A stretch of 24,000 nt of DNA, from the NCBI GenBank assembly GCA_013791785.1, contig VMTD01000001.1, positions 1 through 24,000 on the forward strand. The letters are read 5' to 3'. Made by a program: the position numbers and the translations under genes. Source of the DNA: Methanobacteriota archaeon (GTDB taxonomy: Archaea; Thermoplasmatota; Thermoplasmata; SG8-5). Under the pieces are notes generated by a model. That model did no database searches. It was not told where the DNA came from and saw nothing but the letters and a program-made list of their open reading frames with translations. Of the stretch, positions 6,369-21,079 are shown piece by piece (positions within the stretch are counted from its first letter, which is position 1; each line of letters begins with the position of its first letter).

Positions 6369-6398
6369 GTATATCTGCCTCTCCCGATGTGAGTTATG

Positions 6399-6809
6399 TT
6401 ATAATTCTTTGCTGGTGACGACAAGCCCGGAATGCTTGACCCCCCGAACGGATTTCGTGGCATCGGAGAATTTTCTAACTTCGGCAGGAGAACCCCTGAT
6501 GGCCAGTATCTCAAGGCAGTTGTCATGGTCCAGATGGATGTGCATTGTGGAATAGATGGTAACGTGCGAGTCATGCTGCAGCGTCAGTAATTTATTCACT
6601 GTATCCGAAGTGTGATGGTCATACACCATGGTCACGATGCCGACGACTTCTCCCTGGCCAGTGTCCCAGGCATCGTCTATCATGCTGTTCCGGATGAGGT
6701 CGGCAATGGCCTTGGAACGATTTCCATAGCCCATTTTATCTATCTGGGTGTCGAATGATTCAAGCAGGTCGGTGGGGAGTGAAACCCCGAATCTCGTTAT
6801 CTCGTTCAT
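6399..6809 (-). CDS. nikR: Nickel-responsive transcriptional regulator NikR (ribbon-helix-helix plus ACT-like metal-binding domain)
   Basis: The N-terminus MNEITRFGVSLPTDLLESFD is a typical RHH beta-strand and helix. The C-terminal TMHIHLDHDNCLEI matches the NikR high-affinity Ni site pattern (H-x-H-x5-C). The ORF track starts at a GTG at 6821. I prefer the ATG at 6809 from the N-terminal alignment and the TATA position. The gene is divergent from the cbiM operon. Confidence 0.9.
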   Translation of the reverse strand: MNEITRFGVSLPTDLLESFDTQIDKMGYGNRSKAIADLIRNSMIDDAWDTGQGEVVGIVTMVYDHHTSDTVNKLLTLQHDSHVTIYSTMHIHLDHDNCLEILAIRGSPAEVRKFSDATKSVRGVKHSGLVVTSKEL

Positions 6810-6825
6810 GCCACTCGCCACTCCA

Positions 6826-6838
6826 ATCGTGACACGAT
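6826..6838. promoter_or_regulatory. Perfect 6-1-6 palindrome ATCGTG-A-CACGAT, a candidate NikR operator overlapping the nikR promoter
   Basis: Seen directly in the sequence. It abuts the nikR-side TATA-like atatttaaatt (6837-6847) and lies between that box and the nikR start. Confidence 0.4.
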
Positions 6839-6860
6839 ATTTAAATTGTTGGCACCATGG

Positions 6861-6870
6861 TTTATATATC
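6861..6870 (+). promoter_or_regulatory. TATA-box-like element (tttatatatc) for the cbiM/nik operon
   Basis: It lies about 55 nt upstream of the cbiM ATG at 6922. A GGAGG Shine-Dalgarno at 6911-6915 sits 6 nt before the ATG. Confidence 0.45.
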
Positions 6871-6892
6871 TGAAAAATATCTCATGCCACAA

Positions 6893-6911
6893 ATCGAACA
6901 ATCGTAACACG
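6893..6911. promoter_or_regulatory. Tandem ATCG(T)AACA half-site-like repeats related to the 6826 palindrome
   Basis: atcgaaca (6893-6900) is followed by atcgtaaca (6901-9). aatcgtaacacg (6900-6911) matches aatcgtgacacg (6825-6836) at 11 of 12 positions. The repeats lie near the expected TSS of the cbiM operon. Confidence 0.35.
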
Positions 6912-6921
6912 GAGGATTAAA

Positions 6922-7602
6922 ATGCACATACCGGACGGACTGATGGCCCCCGCAGTGGCGGCATTCGGATGGATTATCGCAATCGGCTTCCTGGCATTGA
7001 CAATGAAGGTGCTGAATAAAAAAATTAACGACCGCCAGATTACTCTCATGGCTGTTCTGTCAGCGGGAATTTTCGTCGCCCAGATGCTGAACTTCCCCAT
7101 CGGCGGCGGGACGACCGGACATCTCATCGGCGCGGCACTGGCTACCGTTATTCTCGGCCCGTTTGCCGGAATTTTGATTATTACGGTCATACTCATAATT
7201 CAGGCCCTGGTGTTCGGGGATGGCGGACTTACGGCACTGGGACTGAACATTCTCAACATGGCAGTCATCGGCTGCCTGGTGGCCTGGTATGTTTACAGGG
7301 CACTTCGCCGCGCGAATGAGAAGGCGGCAGTTTTCGCGGCGGCCTTTGCATCGGTATTTGTCGCAGCTCTGGCAGCGGCAGTGGAACTGGCTGTCAGCCA
7401 CTCCATCAGCGGCGGAACGTACGGAATAGCCGGAAGCATCGCATTTCCTGCCATGACAATTTACCACCTGTTCATCGGAATCGGCGAGGCAATTATCACG
7501 TCAGGTGTGGTGCTGTACATAGCCAGGGTTTCCCCGGGGATGCTCAGAATGCCGAAACTCACTTTCCTGAACAGGCCAAAGGAGGTGGTTCCGGATGCAT
7601 AA
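6922..7602 (+). CDS. cbiM: ECF transporter substrate-capture component CbiM/NikM (cobalt/nickel)
   Basis: 226-aa polytopic membrane ORF starting MHIPDG, the conserved metal-ligating N-terminus of CbiM/NikM. It is followed by translationally coupled N, Q and O components. The adjacent nikR favours nickel specificity; this is an inference. Confidence 0.9.
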   Translation: MHIPDGLMAPAVAAFGWIIAIGFLALTMKVLNKKINDRQITLMAVLSAGIFVAQMLNFPIGGGTTGHLIGAALATVILGPFAGILIITVILIIQALVFGDGGLTALGLNILNMAVIGCLVAWYVYRALRRANEKAAVFAAAFASVFVAALAAAVELAVSHSISGGTYGIAGSIAFPAMTIYHLFIGIGEAIITSGVVLYIARVSPGMLRMPKLTFLNRPKEVVPDA

Positions 7603-7879
7603 GCCAATCGACAGAAAGCATATAAAAATCATCGCAGGAATACTGGTGATATTCGCAATCGGCCTTGTGGGTTATTACCTGTTCTCCGCCGAATACGGCG
7701 ACGGGCTGGAGGTCACGATGGAAGAAGCTGGAGTCGGGGAATCCAAGCCGGTCTACACAGGCCCGCTGGATTACGGCGACAGTTACGCTTCATCGTTGGC
7801 CATGGGCATAATCGGCTTCTTCGTGACGCTGCTTGTGGGATTCCTGCTTGCAAGGTTGCTGAGGAAGAGCGATGCATGA
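7595..7879 (+). CDS. PDGLE-domain small membrane protein (NikN/CbiN-like accessory component)
   Basis: 94-aa ORF with two TM helices flanking EYGDGLEVTMEEAG, a PDGLE-like motif. Its start overlaps the cbiM stop by 8 nt (gATGCATAA). Confidence 0.7.
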   Translation: MHKPIDRKHIKIIAGILVIFAIGLVGYYLFSAEYGDGLEVTMEEAGVGESKPVYTGPLDYGDSYASSLAMGIIGFFVTLLVGFLLARLLRKSDA

Positions 7880-8588
7880 ATCGCCCGACTGCCGGCCAGG
7901 TAACTACACCCCCTTCGACCCGCGGACCAAGATTGTGGGAGTCGCATTCTTCGTGGTGGCTGTGGCATTGCTGACGGAAAATATTCTACTGCTATTTTCT
8001 GTCGTATTCATGCTCTGCCTGCTGGTCATCTCAGGAGTTTCCGGCACCCGCATAGGGAAAAGATATGCCATTGCACTGCCATTCATATTGCTGGCATCCG
8101 TTTCCATGTACCTGACTTCCGGCCAGGACAGGGCGATGGGCATGTTTCTGAGAATTTCCGCATCCGTTCTCGCCCTGGTGTTGCTGTCGGTAACAACCGC
8201 TTTCCACGACCTGCTGAACGGGCTTCAGAGGCTGAGAGTTCCAGGGCTGGTCGTGAATATGCTCATGTTCACCTATCGATACATTTTCGTCCTTACTGAA
8301 GAGATGGGCAGGATGAACGTTGCCAGGCGCGCCAGGGGTTACAGGGGTGGCGGAAGTCTCCTGAACAGGCACATCATGGGAACGATATCGAATACAGCCG
8401 GCATGCTGCTGGTCAGGGCGTACGAGCGTGGGCTTCGGGTGCACGACTCTCTCACTGCCAGGGGCTATGACGGCCGTATCAGAACGCTCAGCCGCCAGAA
8501 CCTGCAGGCCCGGGATGCGGCATTCTGCGGGTCGCTGGTTTTCATGGGACTGTTCCTCATTTCGGCGGAACTGGGGATGCTGGCATGA
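7872..8588 (+). CDS. cbiQ: ECF transporter transmembrane (T) component CbiQ/NikQ
   Basis: 238-aa membrane ORF in the position expected for CbiQ. It carries the conserved ARRARG-type loop (NVARRARGYRGG) of EcfT/CbiQ proteins. It has an 8-nt overlap with the upstream gene (gATGCATGA) and an ATGA overlap with cbiO. Confidence 0.85.
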   Translation: MHESPDCRPGNYTPFDPRTKIVGVAFFVVAVALLTENILLLFSVVFMLCLLVISGVSGTRIGKRYAIALPFILLASVSMYLTSGQDRAMGMFLRISASVLALVLLSVTTAFHDLLNGLQRLRVPGLVVNMLMFTYRYIFVLTEEMGRMNVARRARGYRGGGSLLNRHIMGTISNTAGMLLVRAYERGLRVHDSLTARGYDGRIRTLSRQNLQARDAAFCGSLVFMGLFLISAELGMLA

Positions 8589-9403
8589 CGGTGCTGCGGC
8601 TCTCGAAAGTATCATACGCATATGACGACGATTCAAACGCCCTTGATGAAATTGACCTTTCGGTCGCGGGGGGGGAATGCGTCGCGGTTATCGGACCCAA
8701 CGGTGCGGGAAAATCCACATTGCTCAGGGTGATGGCCGGGCTGCTGGCGCCCACCGCCGGAACCGTGGAAATGATGGGCAAGAAACTTGATCGGAAGAAA
8801 ACGGCCGCCGGGGGAAATATCGGAATTCTGTTCCAGGATCCGGATGATCAACTATTCATGCCCAGCGTCCGGGAGGATGTTGCCTTCGGGCCGCTGAACC
8901 AGGGCCTGGGTACGGAAGAGGCCGGGAAACGCGTTACGGAGGCGCTGAGACTTGTGGGCCTGCCGAACTTCGGAGAGAGAGTACCGCATCACCTCAGCTA
9001 CGGGGAAAAGAAGCGCGTGGCAATAGCCGGAATACTGGCAATGCGTCCGAAAATTCTTCTGCTTGACGAACCGACTGCCAACCTGGACCCCCGGGGCAGG
9101 GCCGAACTCATGGGGCTAATCGGAAAACTGGGATGCACCGTGGTGATGGCCACCCATGACATGGAAACGGCTGCGGCCATGGCCGACAGGGTGTGCGTCC
9201 TGAACCGAAAGGTACTGGCCACAGGGGAGAAACGCGAGATACTGACAAATAGAAAATTGCTGGAGAGCAACGGTCTTGAGATGCCCACCGTTGCCAGGCT
9301 GTTCGCGGAGATGGACGCTGACGGCGAGATGCCGCTGACGGTGGGGGAAGCGGCGGGATGGATGGCCAAGAGAAATGAGGGCCTTGACAGAAAAGAGAAA
9401 TAA
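8585..9403 (+). CDS. cbiO: ECF transporter ATP-binding protein CbiO/NikO (ABC ATPase)
   Basis: Walker A GPNGAGKST, ABC signature LSYGEKKRV, Walker B ILLLDEPTANLD, and an H-loop ATHD. Confidence 0.92.
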   Translation: MTVLRLSKVSYAYDDDSNALDEIDLSVAGGECVAVIGPNGAGKSTLLRVMAGLLAPTAGTVEMMGKKLDRKKTAAGGNIGILFQDPDDQLFMPSVREDVAFGPLNQGLGTEEAGKRVTEALRLVGLPNFGERVPHHLSYGEKKRVAIAGILAMRPKILLLDEPTANLDPRGRAELMGLIGKLGCTVVMATHDMETAAAMADRVCVLNRKVLATGEKREILTNRKLLESNGLEMPTVARLFAEMDADGEMPLTVGEAAGWMAKRNEGLDRKEK

Positions 9404-9412
9404 TTCAAAAAG

Positions 9413-9420
9413 TTTAATAT
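9413..9420 (+). promoter_or_regulatory. TATA-box-like element (tttaatat, preceded by an A-rich BRE-like caaaaag) for tRNA-Gln
   Basis: Centred about 33 nt upstream of tRNA position 1 (9450). This fits a short pre-tRNA leader. Confidence 0.45.
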
Positions 9421-9449
9421 GGGTATGCGAATATCCGCGGCTACCGAAT

Positions 9450-9521
9450 AGCCCCGTGGTGTAGTGGTTATCATTAGAGACTCTGGATCTCTGGACTCCA
9501 GTTCGAATCTGGACGGGGCTA
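9450..9521 (+). tRNA. tRNA-Gln (anticodon CUG)
   Basis: Hand-folded cloverleaf.
- Acceptor AGCCCCG/CGGGGCT (7 bp, A1:U72), discriminator A.
- D arm GTGT-AGTGGTTA-TCAT.
- Anticodon arm AGAGA-CTCTGGA-TCTCT, with CTG at positions 34-36.
- 4-nt variable loop.
- T arm TCCAG-TTCGAAT-CTGGA.
- No encoded CCA, and a T-rich tract (ttatttt, 9528-9534) just downstream. Confidence 0.9.
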
Positions 9522-9740
9522 CTCTCATTATTTTGTAAACATGCCCGTCCAGATGAAGAACTGGCCCCACGAGCGGCTGTATCTTCATTAATGAAACCGG
9601 AGGCCGCGAGCAAGACGAATTTGTCACACAAATTCGTCGATGGTCCGAATCTGGACCCCCAGCTCTTACACTGGATTACGATTCGTTCATACTTCGTGTC
9701 TGGGGCCTATGCAAGAATTTACATCTGCAACCAATGCCAC

Positions 9741-9968
9741 CTGAAACTGGGCCTAACCATAAACTTCACCACGGCACCGCCCATCCCCATCATGCCCCGT
9801 CTGAATCGCTTCTCATATTATCTGGAGGGCGGGGTATTCGTCATCGAATTTTCCGAATTCGATGTCGTGTGACACGATTCCCGTCATCATCCTTTTAAAG
9901 CCTCGCCTGTAAGGGCGGGGTTAGCTTAAATCGGCGCACAACTCGGCTCCAGGGCTCCGGCACCGGCC
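9741..9968. repeat. Structured repeat family, copy A (right half only, about 230 bp)
   Basis: Aligns by eye to 16070-16299 (copy C) and 12100-12270 (copy B). It contains:
- a long-loop stem CCCCGTC (9795-9801) / GGCGGGG (9828-9834)
- hairpin CATCGAATT-ttccg-AATTCGATG (9842-9864)
- hairpin CCTCGCC-tgtaag-GGCGGGG (9901-9920)
The left boundary is approximate. Confidence 0.8.
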
Positions 9969-9979
9969 AACCGCCCAAA

Positions 9980-10000
9980 GCACCCCACCGCAAACTCCTT
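9980..10000. repeat. Degenerate copy of the cassette 3' motif (gcaccccaccgcaaactcctt)
   Basis: Related to 12582-12605 (gcaccctctccacaacaaactcct) with a 3-nt indel and two substitutions. It lies about 40 nt 3' of the stop of the minus-strand ORF at 10040. Confidence 0.45.
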
Positions 10001-10039
10001 GGCCGTGTTCCCCCACATCTCCCCACGCCTCGCACCCCC

Positions 10040-10285
10040 TCACGAACCCCGTCCCTCCATTTCCCTGAAAAGCGCTTCCTTATCCACTGTCGGATCAACC
10101 GGCTCATAGGCAAAGCAGCAGAACATCTCGCCTTTCTGGATTTCATCCAACTGGTCCATCCGTGTAAGATTGCATGCAACGATCTCTTTTCCGTTTATGA
10201 TGCATGATTGGCAAAGCAGCGGCACCGGTATTGAATCCTCATCGATTTTTGTTCCGTCGTCCAGGTAATATCCTCCTTCGGTCAT
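10040..10285 (-). CDS. Small cysteine-containing hypothetical protein (81 aa from the ATG at 10285; 90 aa if it starts at 10312)
   Basis: The ORF is immediately downstream of and co-directional with abiEii. The start at 10285 is preceded by AAAGGTGA with 7 nt between GGTGA and the ATG. The protein carries CQSC...C...CC (5 Cys), a possible zinc-binding arrangement. I do not recognise the family. Confidence 0.5.
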   Translation of the reverse strand: MTEGGYYLDDGTKIDEDSIPVPLLCQSCIINGKEIVACNLTRMDQLDEIQKGEMFCCFAYEPVDPTVDKEALFREMEGRGS

Positions 10286-10376
10286 CTTGGTTTCACCTTT
10301 GAACGAGGACATACCATAATCTCTTAAAAACCTTCTTTGTGCTGTATGGATTGCCGCCCTTAGGGGTTCGATTCCT

Positions 10377-11114
10377 CTACAGTTTCTCCTCGATTTCTTT
10401 TCTCACGGTCTCGAAACTCGGTGCCGTTACCATCAATGCCCTTAATTCCTTGTCCCAGACCGTTTTGATTTCCTCAAAGACCTCGTTGAACAGCGATTCG
10501 TTGAGTTTCAAATCATACATGTCCAGTTTCTTCTGTATCAGCGTCTTGTTAAAAATGGTTCCTTTATTCAAAAGGTACCAGATATCATAAGCGTCCCGGG
10601 CCTTCTTTCTGACGAGCATAGCCCTTACCTTTTCGGACATCATCTCCTCGAGAGACATGGATCTTAACCTGAAAGACGGAATATCCGGATATTGCGGAAA
10701 CATCTGTTTCCATTCTGTTTCGAGCAAAACTTCCCCGCAGCTCACATCCATCTGGACCCGGGCAAGGCTCTCCGGCGTTCCCTGATAAAGGAAGCCCTCG
10801 GAAACAAAAGTAACCAAGATGCCTGCCTTTGGCTCGTTTATTTTTACTTTTGAGGGGTAACCGAAGTCGTTTAGGTAATCTACAATTCGGTTTATTTTTC
10901 TGCGACTAATTTCTCCCGAGAAATCAAGATCCTCCGAGAATCTGTTCAGGCCGTGGAGTTTGTACAGCGCGGTGCCGCCCTTGAAAACAAGATTTGGCGT
11001 TTCCCTGGATACCGCCAATAATATGATTTCCTGGAAATAGTCCTTCTCGGCATAGCTCATGTTACTGATACCCTTGGTCCTGGCCACCCTTCTCAGTTCC
11101 TGCATATCTATCAT
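10377..11114 (-). CDS. AbiEii/AbiGii-family nucleotidyltransferase toxin (DUF1814, type IV toxin-antitoxin)
   Basis: Diagnostic N-terminal motif FKGGTALYKLHGLNRFSEDLDF, with a family-typical length of about 245 aa. The ATG at 11114 forms an ATGA overlap with the abiEi stop. The ORF track's earlier start at 11129 is a GTG. Confidence 0.85.
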   Translation of the reverse strand: MIDMQELRRVARTKGISNMSYAEKDYFQEIILLAVSRETPNLVFKGGTALYKLHGLNRFSEDLDFSGEISRRKINRIVDYLNDFGYPSKVKINEPKAGILVTFVSEGFLYQGTPESLARVQMDVSCGEVLLETEWKQMFPQYPDIPSFRLRSMSLEEMMSEKVRAMLVRKKARDAYDIWYLLNKGTIFNKTLIQKKLDMYDLKLNESLFNEVFEEIKTVWDKELRALMVTAPSFETVRKEIEEKL

Positions 11115-11755
11115 TTTGTTACCCTCCACCTGTTGCCTTTCTCCGCAGCGTAGTATCTTGAGTAGTTTCTGTCGCCGGCGATTCTCTCATGCAACAACTC
11201 GAGGAAATGGCCGGACGTTTCTGCCACGTAACCCACTTTCTTGATTGTACTTGTTGGCATTTTCAGCGCGTATTTCTCCAGCCTGGCGATGTCGCATTTC
11301 ATTATCGCGTTCCTGACCTCGTCCACTGGCACTCGTTCCGTTTCAATTGCATCGATTATGGCCTTCTCGAGGTCGGCAATGAAAATCCTGAAACCGTTGT
11401 AATTGATGGGCCTGTAGCCCCAGATACTGACTGACCTGATGAGTTCGACATTTCCGATAACCTCATTCTTTCTGGCCATGACCTCTATTCTGGTCGGGAG
11501 CTGGGTTGTTGTACCGTGGTGCTGGAACGCATACCAGAGCGAGATGTATGATGGGTGATAGATGTGAGAAGCGTAGATGAGAGGGTCCTCATGCACGGTG
11601 TAAAAACCTCTCTTCAACCGTTTTATCACTCCTTTGCTTGCCAGCTTGCTTAAATAAACTTTTGAGTAGTTCATATCGCCAACAGCTGCTGCGATTTGCT
11701 TGGTCGTGAATACTGGCACTCGCTCTGCAAACTCAAGGAGGTCTTTTTCTTTCAT
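11111..11755 (-). CDS. AbiEi-like antitoxin / wHTH transcriptional regulator
   Basis: The N-terminal wHTH (FTTKQIAAAVGDMNYSKVYLSKLASKGVIKRLKRGFYTV) plus C-terminal domain is typical of archaeal AbiEi/COG5340 proteins. The gene is translationally coupled upstream of abiEii. I prefer the ATG at 11755 (MKEKDLLEF...) over the track start at 11830. Confidence 0.78.
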   Translation of the reverse strand: MKEKDLLEFAERVPVFTTKQIAAAVGDMNYSKVYLSKLASKGVIKRLKRGFYTVHEDPLIYASHIYHPSYISLWYAFQHHGTTTQLPTRIEVMARKNEVIGNVELIRSVSIWGYRPINYNGFRIFIADLEKAIIDAIETERVPVDEVRNAIMKCDIARLEKYALKMPTSTIKKVGYVAETSGHFLELLHERIAGDRNYSRYYAAEKGNRWRVTK

Positions 11756-11830
11756 CTTATCACATACACATAAAGTTACCATAATAGATAACCTTTTCGG
11801 TGAAAGATAAGAAAGAGGTGTTAATTCCAA

Positions 11831-12270
11831 AATGTCGGCTAGATGGGGTGCCGTTGTTACCCCGGCCTCACAGCCGGGGCGTCACAGTTGAAGGATGCAA
11901 AATGCTCCATTTGTTTGGAAAAATATCACTTGATGCCAGAATAGTATAAAACCCCGCCCTCACAGGCGGGGCATGCTGGTTGCCAAATGACGTGCTGGTT
12001 TGTATGCCGAGGCATGGGTATGTAGTGGACAATCTCCTCTGAACCCGCCCAACCCCAACCGTCACCCCAACACCTGTCAATTCGGCCTAGTGGCTGGTTC
12101 CAGCTTTCCCCATCATGCCCCGTCTGAATCGCTGCTCATGTTGTCTGGAGGGCGGGGTACCCGCCATCGAATTTTTCGAATTCGATGTCATGTGACACGA
12201 TTCTCGTATCATCCTTTTAACGCCCCGGGTGTGAGCCCGGGGTTAGCTTAAATCGGCGTACAACCCGGCC
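11831..12270. repeat. Structured repeat family, copy B (full length, about 440 bp), MITE-like
   Basis: Aligns to copy C over its whole length at roughly 90 percent identity by eye in the left half. It has an about 45-bp replacement/insertion around 12060-12115. Hairpins:
- 11860-11879: CCCCGGC-ctcaca-GCCGGGG
- 11952-11971: CCCCGCC-ctcaca-GGCGGGG
- 12128-12167: long-loop stem
- 12175-12197
- 12233-12252: CCCCGGG-tgtgag-CCCGGGG. Confidence 0.85.
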
Positions 12271-12430
12271 ACGAAGCTGGTTCCAGCCATCCCGATTCTG
12301 CAGCTGCTTCCAACGTTCTACCCTAATACGCAACGCGAATCTAGAGAGAAAAGCCTCCTGTGCAAGATCCGCGCAACATGTTTCGCCTGTTTCGGGCGGA
12401 ACAGGCGAGTACCTGCCACCCCGGGGCAAG

Positions 12431-12536
12431 CCCCGAGGCTTCACAGTTGAAGGATGCAAAATGCTCCATTTGTTTGGAAAATATCACTTGATGCCAGAAT
12501 AGTATAAAACCCCGCCCTCACAGGCGGGGCATGCTG
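12431..12536. repeat. Structured repeat family, copy D (left-part fragment, about 106 bp)
   Basis: Nearly identical to 11874-11977 of copy B. It includes the agtataaaa box and the hairpin CCCCGCC-ctcaca-GGCGGGG (12510-12529). It ends abruptly after catgctg. Confidence 0.85.
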
Positions 12537-12579
12537 CAATTTCTAGTTGGATATTATGGTATTATTCTATTGCGAAAAA

Positions 12580-12600
12580 CCGCACCCTCTCCACAACAAA
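12580..12600. repeat. 21-nt exact repeat CCGCACCCTCTCCACAACAAA (site 1), 3' of the beta-helix protein gene
   Basis: Identical 21-mer at 14405-14425. Similarity continues weakly for about 12 more nt. A hairpin follows (aaact-CCTA-gtc-TAGG-...agttt, about 12597-12625). The site lies about 50 nt beyond the stop codon at 12651. Confidence 0.85.
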
Positions 12601-12650
12601 CTCCTAGTCTAGGGGCGCAGTTTGACAATCATTCATCTGGTTTTTTGGAA

Positions 12651-14318
12651 TCACTTTGCCTTCAATTTTTTGCTTTGATACATGAGTATCCCCATCACGA
12701 TAATGCTTTCAACTATTACTATGATCCCGCAAATCAGCATTGGAAAATCTTCGAACTCGCTTGTGTCCAGAAAATTATTTTGAAAAGTGTTGTTAGAAAT
12801 CGTGGGCGTACTAACAGTATCATAATCAATGCCCGAGTCAGAGTTGTCAATGAAAGTGTTATTGCGAATTGTTGCTTCCGAGGAAGTCAGTGAAACTCCG
12901 ACACTGTTATTCGAAAATGTATTCTCTTCTATCATGACGCCGGTTGAATCCCAAACAAGAATTCCCGTCTCGGTGCCCTGGATGGTGTTTCCCCGAATCA
13001 CCGAGGGCGAGTTCACAAGAACAATACCTTCCCACTCCGTATTTGAAATGGTGCAATTGGCAATCAATGCCCGGCAGTCCGAAATCATCAATGACCGCGA
13101 AGCACTACCCGTAATCGTGGTATTGGTGATGATTGCGTTTCCCCCGAAAACCTCGATGCCACCGCTTTCCGTCGGCCAGTATACATATCCCCAGAGATTC
13201 GTTATTGATGTATTATTCAACTCCAGTATACCAAAGCTTCGGAATTTAAACGTGCCATTGGACCTGAGAATAGAACCATGTATGCGTAATTCACCTGACT
13301 CCGTAACCCATATCTGTGCATTATCTTCCATGACCAATGTGACATTTTCCAGGAAGAGGGCGTTATCAACCAGGATATCCCCAGTTGGGTGAAGAGTGGT
13401 ATCCGAGTAATTTCTCATTGGAAGAACCGAGAATGATGGAGGTGCTCCTGGATCTGGATTTAATGTAGGCTCTCCTTCGTTCGAAAAAAGAATGAAAGCT
13501 ATGGGCGATGATATCATGCAAAAAATCAAAATGGCAGAGAATCCCGGGATAAATAATCTGTCCGACCTGAATTTCTCAGAGTGTTTTGCTAGCTTGAGGG
13601 GAAGCTGAGCAACCATCAATAAAAAAATCGGAAAAATTGCACCCACGATTGCGAGGGAAAAGCCCATGATGGCCAGATTGGTCCCGGGTGGCGCCTCTTG
13701 CGTACCCATAATGAATGAGAGTGCAAACCAGAAGATGTATGTAAGAGTGTAGAGTGCAATCTCGAGCAAAAGCAACCGTCTTCTGCTGTCGGTTGTCGGA
13801 ACTGGCCAAATGATGTTGCTCACAGGAGGGTTGGCTATACGGGATGCAATAATATCAATCTTTTCAGAAAGCCCATCAATGTTGGTGGAAATCGGCAATT
13901 TTGGATGAATTCCAAGAACCTTTTTTTTGAGCACGAATCCATAAAATTTTGGTCTGTACCATTGCGGGGGATCTATTCTCTCGAAATCGGAATAGGGCAT
14001 CAAGATGTTTTTTTGAAAGGGTTGGTTGATTTCAATGCCGTTCTCATAGAATCTGAACGGTTTGACGGAACGTATCAGAAAAAAGGCGAAAACAAACATC
14101 ATAACAATGCTTGTAATATATGTCCCCAGTAAGATAATATCCATATCGCCAGATTCCGTCGTAATCGTGCTATAAATATCAATGATGAACATAATTGAAA
14201 ATAAAGTTAAAAAACCACCTATCATCTTGAATGTATCCCATTTTCTCTTTTTTACCGATTCGGCAGACTCCTCCAAAATGAGCGCACCTTTATTCTCGAC
14301 CCCACATACCTCAAACAT
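12651..14318 (-). CDS. Polytopic membrane protein with an extracytoplasmic right-handed parallel beta-helix (PbH1/NosD-like) domain and a C-terminal TM anchor
   Basis: 555-aa ORF with about 5 N-terminal TM helices. The region from about residue 330 to 520 shows the periodic beta-helix pattern (NTSITN, GNAIITNTTITG, ALIANCTISN, VIRGNTIQG, VMIEENTFSNN, ATIRNNTFIDN, PTISNNTFQNN). The final TM is ICGIIVIVESIIVMGILMY. A TATA-like box (minus strand attaatatat) is centred about 25 nt upstream of the ATG. The region is visibly AT-richer than the core genes. Confidence 0.8.
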   Translation of the reverse strand: MFEVCGVENKGALILEESAESVKKRKWDTFKMIGGFLTLFSIMFIIDIYSTITTESGDMDIILLGTYITSIVMMFVFAFFLIRSVKPFRFYENGIEINQPFQKNILMPYSDFERIDPPQWYRPKFYGFVLKKKVLGIHPKLPISTNIDGLSEKIDIIASRIANPPVSNIIWPVPTTDSRRRLLLLEIALYTLTYIFWFALSFIMGTQEAPPGTNLAIMGFSLAIVGAIFPIFLLMVAQLPLKLAKHSEKFRSDRLFIPGFSAILIFCMISSPIAFILFSNEGEPTLNPDPGAPPSFSVLPMRNYSDTTLHPTGDILVDNALFLENVTLVMEDNAQIWVTESGELRIHGSILRSNGTFKFRSFGILELNNTSITNLWGYVYWPTESGGIEVFGGNAIITNTTITGSASRSLMISDCRALIANCTISNTEWEGIVLVNSPSVIRGNTIQGTETGILVWDSTGVMIEENTFSNNSVGVSLTSSEATIRNNTFIDNSDSGIDYDTVSTPTISNNTFQNNFLDTSEFEDFPMLICGIIVIVESIIVMGILMYQSKKLKAK

Positions 14319-14328
14319 AAAGGCATAT

Positions 14329-14354
14329 CCACAAAGAGATATATTAATTTGTGG
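14329..14354. promoter_or_regulatory. 7-bp inverted repeat CCACAAA...TTTGTGG enclosing the TATA-like box of the beta-helix protein gene (candidate operator)
   Basis: ccacaaa (14329-14335) and tttgtgg (14348-14354) flank gagatatattaa. The ATG at 14318 is about 25 nt from the TATA centre. Confidence 0.4.
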
Positions 14355-14404
14355 AAAGCCCTCGTCTTATTGTTGGGCCAGTCAAGTATTCACGCCGAGA
14401 AGTG

Positions 14405-14425
14405 CCGCACCCTCTCCACAACAAA
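14405..14425. repeat. 21-nt exact repeat CCGCACCCTCTCCACAACAAA (site 2), 3' of the ATPase gene
   Basis: Identical to 12580-12600. It is followed by a bulged hairpin atttCCGG-tccagcgag-CCGGcaaat (about 14423-14452). It lies about 80 nt beyond the stop at 14506. Confidence 0.85.
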
Positions 14426-14505
14426 TTTCCGGTCCAGCGAGGCCGGCAAATGCCCGTGCCCCGGATTCTGTCCATGGTCTGCGGTTCGCTCCGCGTGACT
14501 CGCTG

Positions 14506-15720
14506 TCAGATTGACCGCTTCCGCTCATCCAGAAGAAACTTCCACATGGGCCGCAATTCCATGCCGTTCACGGTTTCCTCCCGGGTCCGGGTCAGGATGA
14601 GCCTAGTCTTGTATTTCCGAAGGGCCTCCATGCTCTTCATATCCTGAACGTCGACCGTATCCTTGTACTTCACTTCCCAGGCAGTTTTATCGTGAACGAA
14701 ATCCACTTCCAGACCCGAGGAACGGTGGTATCGGATTGTTCCCCTGTCCTTCAATGTCAGATAGACTAGATTTTCCGCGCGGGCGCCGGTGTTGACATGC
14801 TCCGTTAGAACGTTCAAAAGTCCGTTGTCAGCGATGTATATCTTTCTTGGGGACGCCTTGCGCTCGGATGCTTTTCCATCCTTCTCCACCAGATATATCA
14901 GGCCGGCCTCCACAAGTAATTCCACTATCCGACTAACTGTCTCGACCGGTATGCCCAATACTCGGGAAATCTTCCTTATGCTGATGGGGGAGCCGACACT
15001 CTGAGCGGCCAAAGAAAGAATATTCCTCAGATTGCTGCTGGAACGGATATCATGCCTGGCAGCTATGTCCCTGTAAAGGATGCTGTCCACAAGGGCCTGG
15101 AGGACGTTGACATCGCCGGTTCTCACATATTCAGGCATTCCTCCGGTCTCCATGTATTCTTCCGCCAGTCCGGGATACAGATGCTGATTGGCTGGCGAGA
15201 CGGTTTTTCCGGTGAAGGCCAGATATTCATTGAAATCCAGGGGAGAAACATGTACCAATCTTTGCCTGCCAGTCAAATACGGACTTTTCATGATTATGTC
15301 CAGACTGGCCGAACCGGATGCGAATATCTTGACATTCCCCATGTCGTAAAGATTCTTGAGCTGTATCTCGAATCGGTCTTTGAAATGAACCTCATCCAGA
15401 AAAAGATATGCGAAATCGCCATGTTCGAGTTTCGATAAACGCCTGAATTCTTCGACAATGTCCAGTATCGTGTGTTTCTCGAGAGACATGTGGTCCAGCG
15501 AAACATAGAATATTTTTTTGGGATCGACTCCGCCCAGGAGTGTGTGAATTATCTGGTGGATTAGCGTGGTCTTCCCCACTCGCCTCAGCCCGGTTATCAA
15601 AATCACATCTTTCGAGTCCTTTAGTTCCAGTAACCTGGATACATAATTTTTCCGGGGTATTCCCGGGAAATCGAAATCTCCATCCCACCATGGATTGAAT
15701 CTGTGCAAAATGGATTCCAT
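14506..15720 (-). CDS. AAA+ ATPase of the AAA_14/DUF4143 family (COG1373-type) with a C-terminal PD-(D/E)xK-like module
   Basis: The N-terminus (RFNPWW...) is typical of this family. Walker A is GLRRVGKTT and Walker B is YLFLDEVH. The C-terminal ENLVYLTL...GLEVDFVHDKTAWEVKY fits the DUF4143 E...D...ExK pattern. A TATA-like box (minus strand ttttatata) at 15743-15751 is about 27 nt from the ATG. Confidence 0.88.
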   Translation of the reverse strand: MESILHRFNPWWDGDFDFPGIPRKNYVSRLLELKDSKDVILITGLRRVGKTTLIHQIIHTLLGGVDPKKIFYVSLDHMSLEKHTILDIVEEFRRLSKLEHGDFAYLFLDEVHFKDRFEIQLKNLYDMGNVKIFASGSASLDIIMKSPYLTGRQRLVHVSPLDFNEYLAFTGKTVSPANQHLYPGLAEEYMETGGMPEYVRTGDVNVLQALVDSILYRDIAARHDIRSSSNLRNILSLAAQSVGSPISIRKISRVLGIPVETVSRIVELLVEAGLIYLVEKDGKASERKASPRKIYIADNGLLNVLTEHVNTGARAENLVYLTLKDRGTIRYHRSSGLEVDFVHDKTAWEVKYKDTVDVQDMKSMEALRKYKTRLILTRTREETVNGMELRPMWKFLLDERKRSI

Positions 15721-15866
15721 GATGCAATATAGGCGGCAATAGTATATAAAAGTGTCCTACCACACCATCTCACTTTTCATCAAAAGTGTACTATCGTACC
15801 ATGACACTTATGAAAATCCCCGTTCAACGCCATCCATGCCTGGAAGTCCCGCGCGGCCGTCATCAG

Positions 15867-16299
15867 AATGTCAGTTTGATGGGGTGCCGTTGTTACCCCG
15901 GCCTCACAGCCGAGGCTTCACAGTTGAAGATTGCAAAATGCACCATTTGTTTGGAAGAATATCACTTGATGCCAGAATAGTATAAAACCCCACCCTCACA
16001 GGTGGGGCATGCTGGTTGCAAAATGACGTGCGGGCATGTGTGCCGAGGCAGGGGTATGTTGTGGACAAACTCCTCTGAACCCGCCCAACCCCAATCTTCA
16101 CCACGGCACCGCCCATCCTCATCATGCCCCGTCTAAATCGCTGCTCATGAAACCTGGAGGGCGGGGTACTCGCCATTGAATTCGAAAAATTCGATGTCGT
16201 GTGACACGATTCCCGTATCATCCTTTGGGAGCCTCGCCTGTGAGGGCGGGGGGGTGTTTAAATCGGCGCTCAAACTGGCCCCAGGGCTCCGGCACCGGC
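15867..16299. repeat. Structured repeat family, copy C (full length, about 433 bp), MITE-like, with imperfect terminal inverted repeats
   Basis: The left arm starting CAGTTTGA (15872) and the right arm ending TCAAACTG (16277) align as inverted repeats over about 50 bp, roughly 70 percent identity by eye. Hairpins:
- 15896-15915
- 15988-16007: CCCCACC-ctcaca-GGTGGGG
- 16127-16166
- 16174-16196
- 16232-16251: CCTCGCC-tgtgag-GGCGGGG
The copy ends about 11 nt from the lysS stop codon. Confidence 0.85.
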
Positions 16300-16310
16300 T
16301 AGCCCGTTGG

Positions 16311-17921
16311 CTATAAATCGACTTTGACCCCATGTTTTTCAGGGTGTGGTTCTGAGAAGTGTTTGATTCTATCTGTCACAAATTTTTGATCCAGCGACGC
16401 CAGGAAATATCCGAGCCTCGGCCCTTTTGTATGGTTCAGGAATATTCGATACATCAGTTTGAACATATCACCTGCTTTGATTCCATGGCTTACGGCATTC
16501 TCATGGATAGCATTATGAATCTTGTCGGGGGTCCAATCAATTATTTTCATTTGGTCTAGAAGATCATCCAGTGCATACTTTTGCAGTTCAGAAATTTCTG
16601 TTGCAGGGGGTTCTATCTGAAGCTGAAATACCATATCCTCGGGTGCGTGGGTTGCGAGCCATACTTTTACCGCGTTCACTTTTATCTTCAAACGGCGTTC
16701 ATGCTCCGGTGTCATCTGGCTGAGATTGTCCGTGCGGGAGAGGGTCTCCAAAATGTGGTCCCAGTCCCTGCTGACCTGCACCGTGGAAATGAGATGCGAA
16801 TAGGATACCTGGCTGAATGTTTCCGGCACACCTGAAATCTGTGAAATCTCGTAGTTTCTTCCCACATCCTCGATTTCCTTTTCAGGAAGCCCGGTCTCCA
16901 GGCCGAAATATGCGCGCTCCGCGGTCTCATATTCCTCTGCCAGCTTCATAATTCCCAGGCCGAAATCAACGTCCTTGTGGCTTGTCGGATTGGAACGGAT
17001 AAAGAAGTAACGGGCGATTTCCGGTGTGGCGATATCAACAAATTCGCCGATAGTGAGTACCCGGCCAACGGATTTACCGAGCCTCTTGCCGCCTTCTGTG
17101 ACTATCCACTCATAAGGCACCGCCAGCGGTGCGGGCGAGTTGAAAATTTGCTCGCATATCGCTTTTCCTGTTTCGTAGGTTCCGCCCGCGGCCATTAGGT
17201 CCTTTCCCATGGGCTCGAACGTTACACCGAGATGGCTCCATCTGGCGGCCCATTCCACCCTCCAGGGCAATTTTCCTTGCCGAATTCCTGCTTGACCCTC
17301 GTGACCGCAGCCGGGGATGAAATTCTTTCCTGCGGTTCCGCCCTTGCAACGGTAGCTTACCTTCTGACCGTCCCAGGCATATGCTTGGGTCGTTAGTATG
17401 CAACCGCAGTTCTCGCAGATTGCAAAGAACGGCAGCCAGTTATCATCTCTCTCGCTTCCAGAAACCTCCTTGATGATTGCGGTTATTTCGGCGGCCTTGT
17501 CCAGAGCGATTTTCACGACCTCATCATACTTGCCGTCGCGATACATTTGGGCGACCGAGACCGGTTCCGGTCTAACATCTATTCTTTCAAGATTTTCAAG
17601 AAATGGCCTTGTGAAATGGTCAGCGAATGAATCGCAGCAACCGTCCGGGCAGGGCAGAACGTACGCTGGCTGTCCCAGATACTGCTCAAACTCCTTCGGT
17701 AACTGTGGCGGTATCTTCCTCAGCCCGTCCAGGTCGTCCATGGCCCAGATGGTCTTGCATTCACCGCCGCCTGCAATTATGGCCTTGGCTATGCCGTCGG
17801 AAATAATCAGATCCTCGGCGCTGCCAAGGTGCGGCTCTCCCGAGATGGAGGTGCCGCTCTCGACAAAGTGTTTCTTGCCCCTGCCAAGCAGCTGCTCGGC
17901 ATAAACGTCTACCCAGTGCAT
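16311..17921 (-). CDS. lysS: Lysyl-tRNA synthetase, class I (archaeal LysK type)
   Basis: 536-aa ORF. The N-terminus HWVDVYAEQLL...SGTSISGEPHLGS sits where the class I HIGH-like region is expected. Length and overall architecture match class I LysRS rather than the class II enzyme. Confidence 0.85.
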   Translation of the reverse strand: MHWVDVYAEQLLGRGKKHFVESGTSISGEPHLGSAEDLIISDGIAKAIIAGGGECKTIWAMDDLDGLRKIPPQLPKEFEQYLGQPAYVLPCPDGCCDSFADHFTRPFLENLERIDVRPEPVSVAQMYRDGKYDEVVKIALDKAAEITAIIKEVSGSERDDNWLPFFAICENCGCILTTQAYAWDGQKVSYRCKGGTAGKNFIPGCGHEGQAGIRQGKLPWRVEWAARWSHLGVTFEPMGKDLMAAGGTYETGKAICEQIFNSPAPLAVPYEWIVTEGGKRLGKSVGRVLTIGEFVDIATPEIARYFFIRSNPTSHKDVDFGLGIMKLAEEYETAERAYFGLETGLPEKEIEDVGRNYEISQISGVPETFSQVSYSHLISTVQVSRDWDHILETLSRTDNLSQMTPEHERRLKIKVNAVKVWLATHAPEDMVFQLQIEPPATEISELQKYALDDLLDQMKIIDWTPDKIHNAIHENAVSHGIKAGDMFKLMYRIFLNHTKGPRLGYFLASLDQKFVTDRIKHFSEPHPEKHGVKVDL

Positions 17922-17943
17922 GTTACAACATCCGGTAATTAAC

Positions 17944-18552
17944 TCAGGCCGAGAGGGTCCTGGCGCTGACGACGGAACGTATCGGAACGCCGTCGATTTC
18001 TTTCAATTGTGTCTTGTTTACAATCGTCAGGATGAGCTTCGGTTCAGCGCCCATGTTTTTCAGGTCTGTAATGGCCTTCTCCATGGTCTCGCCCGTACCG
18101 ATGACATCATCGACCACGACAATGTTCTTTCCGCTGACATTTGCATAATTGGAACTCAAGGCGCCGGAATTCACTTTTTTATCCGGGGGCCTGTAAACTG
18201 AAAACTCTATGTCCAACTCGTCCGATATATGAGTGGCCAGCGGTATGCCGTTTATGGCAACGCCAACGGCGGTCTGAACCTCGAAATCCCTGTTCTCGGC
18301 TTCCTCCAGAATTATATCAACGAGTATGGATGACATGAGCGATATACGGCTTCCGAAGACGCCCACCGAAGTCCAACCGATTTTGGTGTCCTGGGGTGTG
18401 TCCGTGGGAGCGGTCTTGGACTTTATGCCCTTGGTCAATAGCCAAACAATGGTATTTTCCGAGAGATGCAGTTCCCTGGCTATCTCCTTGTCGTTCATGC
18501 CGCTCTGCTTGAGCTCCAACGCCCTCTGGGCGATGCTGTCTATTCCTTTCAT
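17944..18552 (-). CDS. GfcR / PyrE-like protein (N-terminal HTH fused to a phosphoribosyltransferase domain), a transcriptional regulator
   Basis: An HTH (GMNDKEIARELHLSENTIVWLL) is followed by a PRTase fold with the PRPP-binding loop IVVVDDVIGTGET. This architecture is characteristic of the archaeal orotate-phosphoribosyltransferase-like regulator family. The gene is 22 nt upstream of lysS on the same strand. Confidence 0.82.
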   Translation of the reverse strand: MKGIDSIAQRALELKQSGMNDKEIARELHLSENTIVWLLTKGIKSKTAPTDTPQDTKIGWTSVGVFGSRISLMSSILVDIILEEAENRDFEVQTAVGVAINGIPLATHISDELDIEFSVYRPPDKKVNSGALSSNYANVSGKNIVVVDDVIGTGETMEKAITDLKNMGAEPKLILTIVNKTQLKEIDGVPIRSVVSARTLSA

Positions 18553-18748
18553 TTTTTCACCTTGCGAAATCGTGATACCGGGCGACGTATAAAAAGTTGT
18601 GTTTCGTTGTCATGCGAGAAAGCGAGGTTATGGCCTTGGTTTTGCTATGCCATGCGGTGCAAAAAAATTCGAATATATGCATAATACTTATACTACGCAA
18701 ATTATATATGATAAAAAAGAGGTATGGGACAGAAGCGGAGGGGCACAG

Positions 18749-19444
18749 ATGAAAGTCAATCGAATCAAAACATACGTGAAAGGACTGGACGAGGTCATAC
18801 AGGGTGGAATACCGGATGGTTCGGTGATACTGGTAGCAGGTAAGCCAGGCACAATGAAATCATCTTTCGCCTTCAACATCCTTTACCACAATGCAAACAG
18901 AGAGGACAAGAGCGGCGTTTACGTCACGCTGGAACAGGGACGGGAGAGTCTCCTCACCAACATGGACGGCCTGGGCATGAAGCTCGGCGGCCTGGAGAAG
19001 GAAATTAGCGTTCTTGACCTGGGCATGATAAGAAAGAAGCTGGTCCAGCTCACCAACCAGACATGGATGGAGGTCTTCAAGATGTATCTGAAGAACCTCA
19101 AGAAGAACATGGACATCAACCTGGTTGTTATTGATTCTCTTCCAATTCTTGAGGTCATGGCAAGGTTTGACAGCCCCCGTGAGGAGTTATTCCATTTCTT
19201 CGAATGGCTCAGGGATATGCAGGTTACGGCGTTCCTCATCACCGAGATGGAGCAGGGCTCGGAGAAGTTCTGCCACAACAGCGAGGATTTCCTCGCCGAC
19301 GGCATCATTCACCTGGACCTGAGGCGCGATGAGACCGACGTAAAGCTATGGCTCAGCGTCGTGAAGATGCGTCAGACCAATCACAAGAGGAATTATCTCC
19401 CGCTGATATTCGACAAGGACGGATTCGAGGTCGTTACGGATTAA
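18749..19444 (+). CDS. Single-domain KaiC-like / RecA-superfamily ATPase with an atypical Walker A
   Basis: I prefer the ATG at 18749, preceded by GGAGGGG. MKVNRIKTYVKGLDEVIQGGIPDGSVILVAGKPGTMKS matches the KaiC/RadA-like N-terminus. Walker B is LVVIDSL. The P-loop reads GKPGTMKS (nt 18839-18862) instead of GxPGTGK(S/T). Confidence 0.82.
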   Translation: MKVNRIKTYVKGLDEVIQGGIPDGSVILVAGKPGTMKSSFAFNILYHNANREDKSGVYVTLEQGRESLLTNMDGLGMKLGGLEKEISVLDLGMIRKKLVQLTNQTWMEVFKMYLKNLKKNMDINLVVIDSLPILEVMARFDSPREELFHFFEWLRDMQVTAFLITEMEQGSEKFCHNSEDFLADGIIHLDLRRDETDVKLWLSVVKMRQTNHKRNYLPLIFDKDGFEVVTD

Positions 19445-19483
19445 GCACCCCAATGAATTCCCCGGCCCGGGATTAGAATAATC

Positions 19484-20542: not shown

Positions 20543-20727
20543 CGCGTAGTAATGCACAAACAAGGATTAGTACCTTTCGATTTTTTTAATTGCTTAGTTA
20601 CATGAATATACCCATAAAATCATAATAATGTGCGGTACAACAATATAATACTGCAAATATATACGCATATAACACCATTAAATACAAAAATAGTAACACG
20701 AGAATTTCGATTAATCCACCACCGCTA

Positions 20728-20738
20728 TTTTTATATAA
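20728..20738 (+). promoter_or_regulatory. TATA-box-like element (tttttatataa) at the edge of an about 200-bp AT-rich tract
   Basis: It lies about 30-35 nt upstream of the ATG at 20768 on the plus strand. The AT-rich tract (about 20570-20760) also sits upstream of the divergent regulator gene. Confidence 0.4.
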
Positions 20739-20820
20739 TTAAATGAATATATGTCCGCTTGGAAACTATGACAAATTTTGCATTGCGTGAAGAGTATCGA
20801 AAAGTGAAGAAGTCGAAGAG

Positions 20821-20952: not shown

Positions 20953-21038
20953 TTTATCAAAGCCTGACAGCTTTGATTTCATGTGCAAATATCTGCACAC
21001 GATGCATGGCGGGTCATGCATATGAGCATGGCGGTCTG

Positions 21039-21044: not shown

Positions 21045-21079
21045 GTTCAGATTCGTGTAAATGGCCTCTCATCCCTGGC

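Follow-up and report, generated by a model that had tools for sequence, protein, structure and literature searches.

How does a small set of defence-type genes come to lie between a tRNA gene and an essential aminoacyl-tRNA synthetase gene of an uncultured archaeon, in a stretch of DNA that encodes no enzyme for moving them? The question is raised by 24,000 nt of a Thermoplasmata genome (assembly GCA_013791785.1, contig VMTD01000001.1, positions 1 to 24,000; hereafter the window). The far boundary of the variable site is a tRNA-Gln(CTG) gene (9450–9522, plus strand; ARAGORN, and Rfam tRNA with 58 bits). The other boundary, which we regard as the recombination target, is lysS (16311–17921, minus strand; Pfam tRNA-synt_1f, E = 2.5e-111), encoding a class I lysyl-tRNA synthetase (LysRS). 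The 6.8 kb between them consist of minus-strand accessory genes alternating with four copies or fragments of a structured repeat. A sequence-only reading of the window had described this island as repeat-bracketed gene modules between housekeeping flanks. The flanks are as described (ARAGORN, Rfam, Pfam), with cbiMNQO and nikR on the tRNA-Gln side, and lysS followed by a minus-strand phosphoribosyltransferase/GfcR-like gene on the right. A Pfam domain search likewise bore out that no integrase or transposase is present, as no integrase, transposase or recombinase domain was found in any open reading frame (ORF) of the 24-kb window. We propose that the island is probably a tandem array of small, recombinase-less cassettes that were added serially by recombination in the last ~80 nt of lysS.

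This proposal is based on copies of the lysS 3' end, the informative repeats of the locus, which the sequence-only reading had missed. The first, relic 1 (14390–14470, minus strand; tblastn, blastn and nhmmer), lies 35 nt past the stop of an ATPase gene and reads QNPGHGHLPASLDRKFVVERVRHFSA followed by a stop. It matches the LysRS C-terminus encoded at a related locus, L014, with 73% identity over 26 residues (tblastn, E = 3.7e-9), and its nucleotide match is 81.7% over 71 nt (blastn, E = 1.1e-15). Relic 2 (12562–12618, minus strand; same three programs), ~35 nt past the stop of a beta-helix gene, reads APLD, a stop, EFVVERVRFFAIE and a second stop; it was recovered by tblastn with E = 1.8e-4 and by blastn with 82% identity over 39 nt (E = 1.9e-6). 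An nhmmer scan of the whole window, with a profile built on the final 84 nt of lysS in ten relatives, found exactly three sites, namely the functional end (52 bits), relic 1 (48.0 bits, E = 1.8e-14 over the window) and relic 2 (25.2 bits, E = 2.2e-7). A further candidate, 'relic 0' at 15800–15866, was withdrawn; it aligns with the native double-hairpin flank of another related locus, L047, and only its last ~14 nt are lysS-like.

The functional gene itself carries a tail that does not belong with the rest of it. The lysS ORF is intact, and its sequence 3' of the core TCGCTGGA (16390–16397) is discordant with the remaining gene. This replaced tail (16311–16389, minus strand), recognised by the switch in identity and by the profile, consists of DQKFVTDRIKHFSE and a 12-residue extension, PHPEKHGVKVDL. 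Up to TCGCTGGA the LysRS of the window is 84% identical to that of L014, its closest relative, and after it only 7 of 14 residues agree, whereas the tail of relic 1 agrees with L014 at 13 of 14 residues. The functional tail fits best to the distant L020 clade (10 of 15 residues). Correspondingly, the profile fits the functional end well 5' of TCGCTGGA and poorly 3' of it, while relic 1 shows the reverse, and both relics resemble the lysS ends of relatives more than the window's own lysS tail does. Taken together, the relics and the tail switch read as the signature of DNA that entered by crossover in the lysS end and brought its own version of that end; such entry occurred at least twice. Each event would rewrite the C-terminus of LysRS, and here the 12-residue extension was added. 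As a separate observation, this extension (16311–16349) has no counterpart in relatives and begins exactly at the position of their stop codon. In L047, one lysS-end copy also lacks its stop and runs on for 20 codons into the abiE promoter region.

Since a lysS relic separates the ATPase gene from the beta-helix gene, the pair that the sequence-only reading had combined into one 'module 2' is in fact two units, which we term cassettes X and Y. With the abiE genes and a small protein gene (cassette Z), at least three cassettes are stacked at the site, each of 1.3–2.6 kb, with promoters of its own and one to three genes. Cassette X (14506–15812, minus strand) comprises a gene for an AAA_14 and DUF4143 ATPase (14506–15720; Pfam, PADLOC), a conserved promoter region and its own lysS-tail end, of which it carries the last ~14 nt (GGGGATTTTCATAA, ~15800–15813). 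The ATPase matches the PADLOC candidate defence gene PDC-S01 (E = 2.3e-74), and the region upstream of it is homologous to the corresponding regions of L044, L039 and L047. The cargo of cassette Y is a 555-residue membrane protein with a right-handed beta-helix/NosD domain (12651–14318, minus strand; Pfam). Its family is rare, with four matches, and the protein is a putative member of the defence-type set. Cassette Z (10040–11755, minus strand; Pfam, PADLOC) carries abiEi (11111–11755), abiEii (10377–11129) and a 90-residue Cys-rich ORF (10040–10312). The two abiE genes are adjacent and overlap; Pfam assigns them to AbiEi_4 (E = 1e-8), a winged helix-turn-helix (wHTH) antitoxin, and to the nucleotidyltransferase family AbiEii (E = 1e-33), with PADLOC E-values of 2e-24 and 9e-59, respectively. 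By gene content and arrangement they are thus predicted to form an AbiE toxin-antitoxin/abortive infection pair. The Cys-rich ORF has no family match in Pfam. It is syntenic in L047 (2669–2941; 85% amino acid identity) and does not accompany the distant AbiE pairs of L048 and L049; it may thus be a third, accessory component that goes with this AbiE variant.

As judged from these domains, the cargo is of defence type and consists of an AbiE pair, an ATPase resembling PDC-S01 that has a nuclease-like domain, and a membrane protein. The sequence-only reading had regarded all cargo genes as minus-strand accessory or defence genes, and Pfam and PADLOC agree with it. It had also contrasted a low GC content of the abiE and beta-helix genes with GC-richer core genes, and this contrast was overstated. 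The island has 48.0% GC against 51.7% for the rest of the window, and abiEii (45.8%) and abiEi (48.1%) have a core-gene-like GC content at third codon positions (GC3) of ~60%; only the beta-helix gene is clearly low in GC (42.6%, GC3 47.8%).

If the island was inserted, relatives should differ at the same site, and they do. The relatives with LysRS identities of 60–83% are all Methanomassiliicoccales/Thermoplasmata metagenome-assembled genomes (MAGs). The sequence-only reading had asked whether tRNA-Gln adjoins lysS elsewhere; L019, L014, L021 and L017 represent empty sites, in which the lysS stop is ~110, ~410, ~550 and ~630 nt from tRNA-Gln. The distance is 840 nt in L015, which has a methyltransferase gene there, and 2.1 kb in L016, with a PQQ-like gene and two tRNA-Gln copies. 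The window cargo is absent from the site in all six of these related species (0.1–2.1 kb), and no lysS-end relics were found in L014–L022. The short, cargo-free sites support the insertion claim.

Two occupied relatives show the units apart from one another. In L039 (LysRS 69% identical), lysS is followed by 95 nt, the ATPase gene (78%), 45 nt, a lysS-end relic reading YLLASLERDFVLGRVEHFSK and a stop, tRNA-Gln and nikR; both lysS-end copies share an identical core of 32 nt, and the site contains no copy of the dispersed repeat R described below, no beta-helix gene, no abiE and no other cargo. L047, with 92% nucleotide identity in shared DNA, has an ATPase gene, a relic, abiEi, abiEii and the small ORF, a second relic, a second ATPase cassette with an internal deletion, a further relic, the native region and tRNA-Gln; the beta-helix gene, relic 2 and the repeat copies D and B are all absent. 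The three genes of Z are 92% identical to their L047 counterparts at the nucleotide level and have lysS-end copies on both flanks there, which makes Z a unit as well. Units are also found apart from one another, X without the others in L039, X and Z without Y in L047, and this answers in the affirmative the question of the sequence-only reading whether modules occur independently. In L044 and L052, too, a lysS-end copy precedes the ATPase gene. A separate peculiarity of L044 is a fusion at 900–1115, ahead of the ATPase cassette: the promoter of tRNA-Gln, with the first 12 nt of the tRNA itself, runs directly into 150 nt from the lysS 3' end that are still in frame.

The same comparisons bear on the idea that the array is old and vertically inherited, with relatives having lost parts of it by deletion between lysS ends and no recent import. 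Deletion between direct repeats would be easy and would restore an intact lysS, and the ends of the X cassette are homologous in all five carriers (window, L039, L044, L047 and L052), which fits a single origin. However, the functional lysS tail is phylogenetically discordant with the remaining gene, the ATPases of the window and L039 (78%) are more conserved than the corresponding LysS proteins (69%), and X is missing from L014, L016, L017 and L021, all of which are closer to the window than L039 is and each of which has a different site content. In addition, differences between the duplicated gene ends of L045 (see below) are synonymous or conservative, as if both copies had evolved as working genes in different lineages. 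We therefore consider purely vertical descent improbable; even under it, the cassettes would be excisable units. With regard to serial addition to the lysS end, the comparisons show recombination in that end, replacement of the tail, stacking, and independent distribution of X and Z.

The architecture is not tied to lysS. Cassette Y is absent from the close relative L047, and its 64% homolog in L045 lies behind ogg, whose last 84 nt are duplicated beyond the homolog. The ogg-end copy is 74% identical, keeps frame and stop, and has several synonymous differences; a duplicated 60-nt leader and an R copy, cut after hairpin 2, lie between the two ogg ends. In L040, similarly, the final ~85 codons of a methyltransferase gene recur in degraded form beside a 73% homolog of the ATPase. 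This target, an N6/N4 methyltransferase gene beside a DpnI-like gene (5600–6000 and 7243–7500), lies in the opposite orientation to the lysS case. Not every homolog of the cargo has such surroundings, as the AbiE homologs at 66–68% identity (L048, L049) have no R or lysS-end copy nearby and the beta-helix homolog in L046 has no flanking up/down repeat, R or lysS-end copy.

Based on these observations, we propose the following hypothetical sequence of events, in which (i) an incoming piece of DNA would carry its own copy of the lysS 3' end; (ii) one crossover near the conserved CTGGCnTCGCTGGA would fuse the imported end to lysS, leaving the gene intact; and (iii) the former lysS end would be displaced downstream as a relic. 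The incoming DNA could have been a circle with a lysS-end copy that integrated by a single crossover, or a linear donor (lysS, tail, cargo, relic) that recombined via lysS and the relic or native end, and both routes would give the observed topology. Starting from lysS, the array would then consist of the imported tail, the gene-less native copy C, X, relic 1 and Y, followed by relic 2 with the native double-hairpin terminator D, by B as a second copy of the downstream region, by Z and, finally, by the degraded original lysS end, R copy A and tRNA-Gln. From this layout we infer the order of the insertion events, while the history of blocks B, C and D is reconstructed in part.

With regard to the enzyme, we lean slightly towards host homologous recombination with occasional illegitimate joints, rather than a site-specific recombinase acting in trans. 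We do so because none of the ~10 loci read contains a recombinase gene, because the duplicated segments are homologous over a variable length (~50 to 260 nt), because homologous cargo occurs at different target genes, and because the junctions of the gene-less blocks B and C fall at arbitrary positions, ~75 and 12 nt beyond the second hairpin. In favour of a site-specific recombinase are the repeated use of the same ~30 nt and the clean 32-nt core in L039; both could also be explained if this is simply the best-conserved stretch of the gene end.

Several findings weigh against the serial-addition model or one of its variants. The data basis consists of MAGs and metagenome contigs only. The identical core shared by the functional lysS end and relic 1 is only 8 nt (TCGCTGGA) in the window, compared with the 32 nt of L039, and the left lysS copy of Z is absent from the window. 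A possible third relic beside copy A (9985–10025, minus strand), a strongly degraded lysS end that could be the original chromosomal end, is non-significant by itself (nhmmer E = 22); it aligns with L047 3214–3255, which is itself a lysS-end match at E = 8.5e-4, and this weakly suggests a relic. No gene for a cognate recombinase was found in the window or in the related loci read, and near lysS there is no integrase gene in L015, L016, L020, L022, L039 or L044. The arbitrary joints of B and C are not predicted by a clean att × att model, so that illegitimate joints or deletions must be invoked. Homologous cargo at lysS, ogg and a methyltransferase gene is awkward for a single site-specific recombinase, and the recurrent use of the same ~30 nt of lysS is somewhat awkward for pure homologous recombination.

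The locus has the features that integration into a gene 3' end leaves behind, namely target-derived direct repeats, a replacement end and empty sites in relatives, and it can be compared with several known systems. For archaea, one survey describes elements inserted in 3'-distal parts of protein-coding genes, and tandem arrays that arose when an attachment (att) site was used again (PMC6563490). The protein-gene integrations described there resemble the present case in the stop supplied by the element, in the occurrence of empty and occupied sites in relatives, and in their tandem arrays (PMC6563490). The island in the window differs from such elements in that it has no integrase or casposase gene and that its array contains gene-less native flanking blocks. 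The elements of the survey reportedly carry an integrase or casposase and are far larger.

The closest parallels are found in bacteria. Cis-mobilisable elements (CIMEs) are integrase-less elements kept between att sites, and their tandem accretion is described in streptococci, with examples among the ICESt1-related elements at fda of Streptococcus thermophilus and islands at tRNA-Lys (PMC5704250). Like CIMEs, the cassettes lack integration genes, are held between copies of the target-gene 3' end and are stacked several to a site; the element-borne end keeps the target gene intact, and blocks can move together. In contrast to CIMEs, they are archaeal, are only 1.3–2.6 kb long with one to three genes and own promoters, and have no integrase-bearing partner in the loci read. 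Moreover, their duplicated segments are homologous to the target over the whole variable length (~50 to 260 nt) with no fixed core, and homologous cargo is also found at other target genes. By this analogy, the locus would be another case of elements without an integrase accreting in tandem at a gene 3' end, a process already known, and would stand out for its cassettes of one to three genes.

Chromosomal integrons form another class of arrays, with near-identical attC repeats and small units that often encode toxin-antitoxin or defence functions. The island is integron-like in its small, mostly single-gene units with structured repeats between them at one site, and the corresponding 'gene then R' order recurs in the related metagenome Ga0180732. 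However, no intI or other tyrosine recombinase gene is found in the 24-kb window, the junction is a copy of the target-gene end, and the cassettes have own promoters and occur in either orientation. The attC site is a single imperfect hairpin of ~57–141 nt with pairing ends RYYYAAC ... GTTRRRY (PMC2727003). The repeat R was rejected as an attC by inspection, as it measures ~205 nt and has four separate helices, unpaired ends and no R''/R' core sites. Homology-facilitated illegitimate recombination, described for bacterial transformation and conjugation (PMC3240628), would anchor incoming DNA by homology at one end (here lysS) and leave the joint at its other end arbitrary, which fits B, C and the cut of R in L045. 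It is undescribed for archaea in that source, and by itself it does not predict repeated crossovers in the same 30 nt. The locus is not an integron; nor is it a MITE-flanked composite (MITE, miniature inverted-repeat transposable element), and its cargo is not a tRNA-targeted island.

The structured repeat, on which the sequence-only reading had centred, has a different place in this picture. Sequence comparison confirmed its four copies and their order, A, B, D, C. Copy A (9741–9973, plus strand; nhmmer E = 1e-80) consists of the right half, R, only; its core lies between the direct repeats GGCACCGCCCATCC (9772–9785) and GGCACCGGCCAACC (9959–9972). In the public MAG annotation a 93-residue gene (9591–9872, plus strand) overlies this copy; this gene matches no family and other R copies do not preserve its frame, so that the call is probably spurious. 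Composites B and C are complete, with ~435 nt each, and share 90% identity over 247 nt. B (11828–12300; sequence comparison, hairpins) is made up of a left part, the E_L double hairpin and its leader on the minus strand (11828–12074), and R on the plus strand (12075–12300), and has a terminator-like hairpin with a T-run on the minus strand (11951–11972). C (15813–16300, with the repeat at 15864–16300 and ~50 nt of native flank) has E_L and leader on the minus strand (~15864–16083) and R on the plus strand (16083–16300), ending 10 nt from the lysS stop. Fragment D (12410–12536, minus strand), ~30 nt past relic 2, corresponds to ~120 nt of the left half, namely the E_L double hairpin only. Its hairpins, with a GUGA loop (12509–12530) and a CUUG loop (12419–12438), are laid out as in the native lysS terminator region of L017.

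Most of this 'repeat' turned out to be ordinary lysS surroundings. On the minus strand, the left part reads CATG, a hairpin, ~72 nt and a second hairpin, the same architecture as R, and its first hairpins with T-runs are the three best terminator-like matches in the island. The double hairpin is the native sequence downstream of lysS in L017 and L047, and the region from lysS to tRNA-Gln that is native to L047 can be aligned with all of B and C except the inserted R. The repeat is therefore mostly native lysS downstream DNA that was copied with the lysS ends, and it is a passenger or a substrate of the process, composed of a native terminator-like lysS region and the dispersed R.

R itself is a ~205-nt dispersed element, and seven large contigs of Ga0180732 together carry at least 14 copies of it. 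There it mostly follows within 10–20 nt the stop of a co-oriented gene, in most cases an accessory gene (RloB, EVE, ATPase_2 with DUF234, AbiEi, Bro-N, YhcG nuclease, a nucleotidyltransferase pair). Its four helices have 94% of cells paired, compared with 41–58% for partners shifted against each other; at five pairs both bases have changed, and U.G wobbles are fixed on the plus strand, where the other strand would have mismatches. Two capping hairpins have 8-bp stems with GUGA or GUAA loops. The covariation of the helices and the strand-specific wobbles argue for a function of R at the RNA level. Neither R nor the left repeat has an Rfam family, with only tRNA matches at the gathering threshold and at E-values up to 5; identity with a known RNA family or ribozyme was discarded for this reason, and R would represent an uncatalogued structured element. 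An exact 24-mer of the left module had no match across one genome per species. We also rejected the repeat as a coding remnant, an idea suggested by the in-frame ...LEGGV.IEF.EFDVV that A, B and C share up to the same TGA; L016 and L021 have lost the ATG, in short variants the frame ends after four codons, and 1-nt indels occur elsewhere. R is subject to insertions of its own. In two copies (L006 1268–1403 and L010 6315–6449), hairpin 2 is interrupted by one and the same ~135-nt insert, AATATTACACACTATGGCACCCAGCCAACCACATAG..., which seems to be a second small element targeting R, and a related insert with a duplicated R tail is present in L016 (11640–11740).

Could R, or the composite of left part and R, nevertheless be a non-autonomous mobile element between whose direct copies the cargo was moved or captured? 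Intergenic hairpin repeat families are well known, among them the repetitive extragenic palindromic sequences and bacterial interspersed mosaic elements (REP/BIME), Correia elements and archaeal MITEs. R and E_L resemble them in being multi-copy, non-coding, hairpin-rich and terminator-like, in their location at gene 3' ends and in their variable presence. The dispersal of R on the Ga0180732 contigs fits mobility, as does the variable presence of copy A: at the orthologous site, L047 has no R and only one copy of the short flanking repeat (direct repeats of 10–18 nt). Accessory genes of Ga0180732 often lie between two R copies of the same subtype, as do a nucleotidyltransferase gene with a wHTH gene in L005, a Bro-N gene in L009 and a YhcG nuclease gene in L011; in L008, a peptidase gene and one more gene lie between R copies that are 95% identical over 111 nt, and L045 has R at its junction with the duplicated ogg end. 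In the window and its closest counterparts, however, the recurring junctions are lysS 3'-end copies. L039 and L047 carry cassettes without flanking R or left-part composites, X and Y are separated by a lysS relic and no repeat, and B and C are homologous to the native region downstream of lysS (L047, L017) and do not form a self-contained element. R has no terminal inverted repeats and no transposase, and its flanking direct repeat has one sequence in all copies (the GGCACCGGCCAACC or the GGCTGGTTCCAGCC type), whereas that of a MITE would vary. Unlike REP/BIME, Correia elements and MITEs, it is ~205 nt long with four helices and GNRA/CUUG tetraloops, has strand-specific U.G wobbles and a strong association with accessory and defence genes, and belongs to no Rfam family. 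Finally, copies A, B and C are not most closely related to one another, since A is 92% identical to a copy in another metagenome and 80–84% identical to B and C, a divergence that would fit import from different donors over local duplication. We regard mobilisation by the repeat as unlikely, if somewhat less so than purely vertical descent. The notion of the sequence-only reading that cargo was mobilised between repeat copies is thus not supported here in that form, and the R-bracketed genes of Ga0180732 leave part of it tenable; its accessory DNA at a variable site was indeed inserted, and its structured repeats do not mark the borders of the insertions.

Serial addition to the lysS end, our preferred explanation, might be one instance of something wider. 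It is possible, and we put it forward tentatively, that Methanomassiliicoccales have a cassette system without a recombinase, in which single defence-type genes carried with a short copy of a host-gene 3' end insert, stack and excise by host recombination and R is a functional part, be it as a terminator, stabiliser or recombination handle. Whether or not this holds, serial addition makes the window an example of a small defence island, in an uncultured lineage of archaea, that was built without an integrase, a transposase or a tRNA target, with the end of an essential gene recombined repeatedly and a datable scar left by each event. The ogg and methyltransferase cases suggest that this may be a general route by which defence genes spread without dedicated mobility enzymes. 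If so, recently acquired genes in archaeal MAGs could be searched for by a simple signature, in which one to three accessory genes precede a duplicate of the final 50–250 nt of their neighbour gene. Viral contigs contained no match for the repeat 24-mer and 23-mer, the lysS-core pattern or the ATPase, and a viral or plasmid origin was rejected on this account.

The other boundary gene, tRNA-Gln, offers a further candidate target. The sequence-only reading had also considered a tRNA-proximal integration hot spot, in which elements with integrases would have entered the tRNA-Gln 3' end and the cargo would be what remained after decay. Direct repeats of the tRNA 3' end are indeed present downstream of the tRNA gene in the window (degenerate), in L017, in L014 (two extra) and in L039, and L016 has two tRNA-Gln genes. 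In the window, a remnant at 9523–9668 (plus strand; inverted copy at 9543–9553), delimited by the tRNA 3' end and by a degenerate direct repeat of it at 9642–9665, looks like an att-type relic of a tRNA-targeting element that lies outside the cargo. These repeats enclose only ~130 nt, all cargo lies beyond them and is delimited by lysS-end copies on the lysS strand, the window has no integrase remnant, and window repeat comparisons revealed no further tRNA-Gln 3'-end copy beside lysS that would enclose the island. A tRNA-gene hot spot is hence very improbable as the source of the cargo, and the target is the lysS end. L017 contains an intact second copy of the tRNA end in the same arrangement, with related forms in L014, L039 and L016, and the tRNA-end repeats look like relics or mini-elements of a tRNA-targeting integrase that are distinct from the lysS array. 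The form in L014 is a tandem pair of ~95-nt units with inverted ends, and that in L016 the two tRNA-Gln genes already mentioned. In L039 (~2760–2870), tRNA-Gln has an apparent intron of ~34 nt in the anticodon-loop region; ARAGORN reports no tRNA there, yet both halves match the tRNA of the window.

Finally, chimeric joining of unrelated contigs at repeats, during assembly or binning, could imitate a mosaic locus. Contigs do break at the repeat, L004 ending inside copy C, and the repeats explain such assembly breaks at this locus; the window also leaves a MAG contig to the right of 21028. However, positions 6311–21028 occur at 99.9–100% identity in four independent assemblies (two NCBI MAGs, one from ENA and one from Logan), so that the arrangement is no assembly artefact, and L047 and L039 independently confirm the cassette junctions. 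We give this explanation hardly any weight for the island. Outside the island, the 99.9% match between the window and MAG contig JAHIEI010000056.1 ends at 21028. To the right of this position the window has genes for a tetratricopeptide repeat protein and a histone-deacetylase-like protein, and the MAG contig has those for aconitase, ATP-citrate lyase and isocitrate dehydrogenase. The divergence is either a rearrangement or a mis-join, and a ~240-nt repeat (83%) in a low-GC stretch lies at the break (window 20877–21115).

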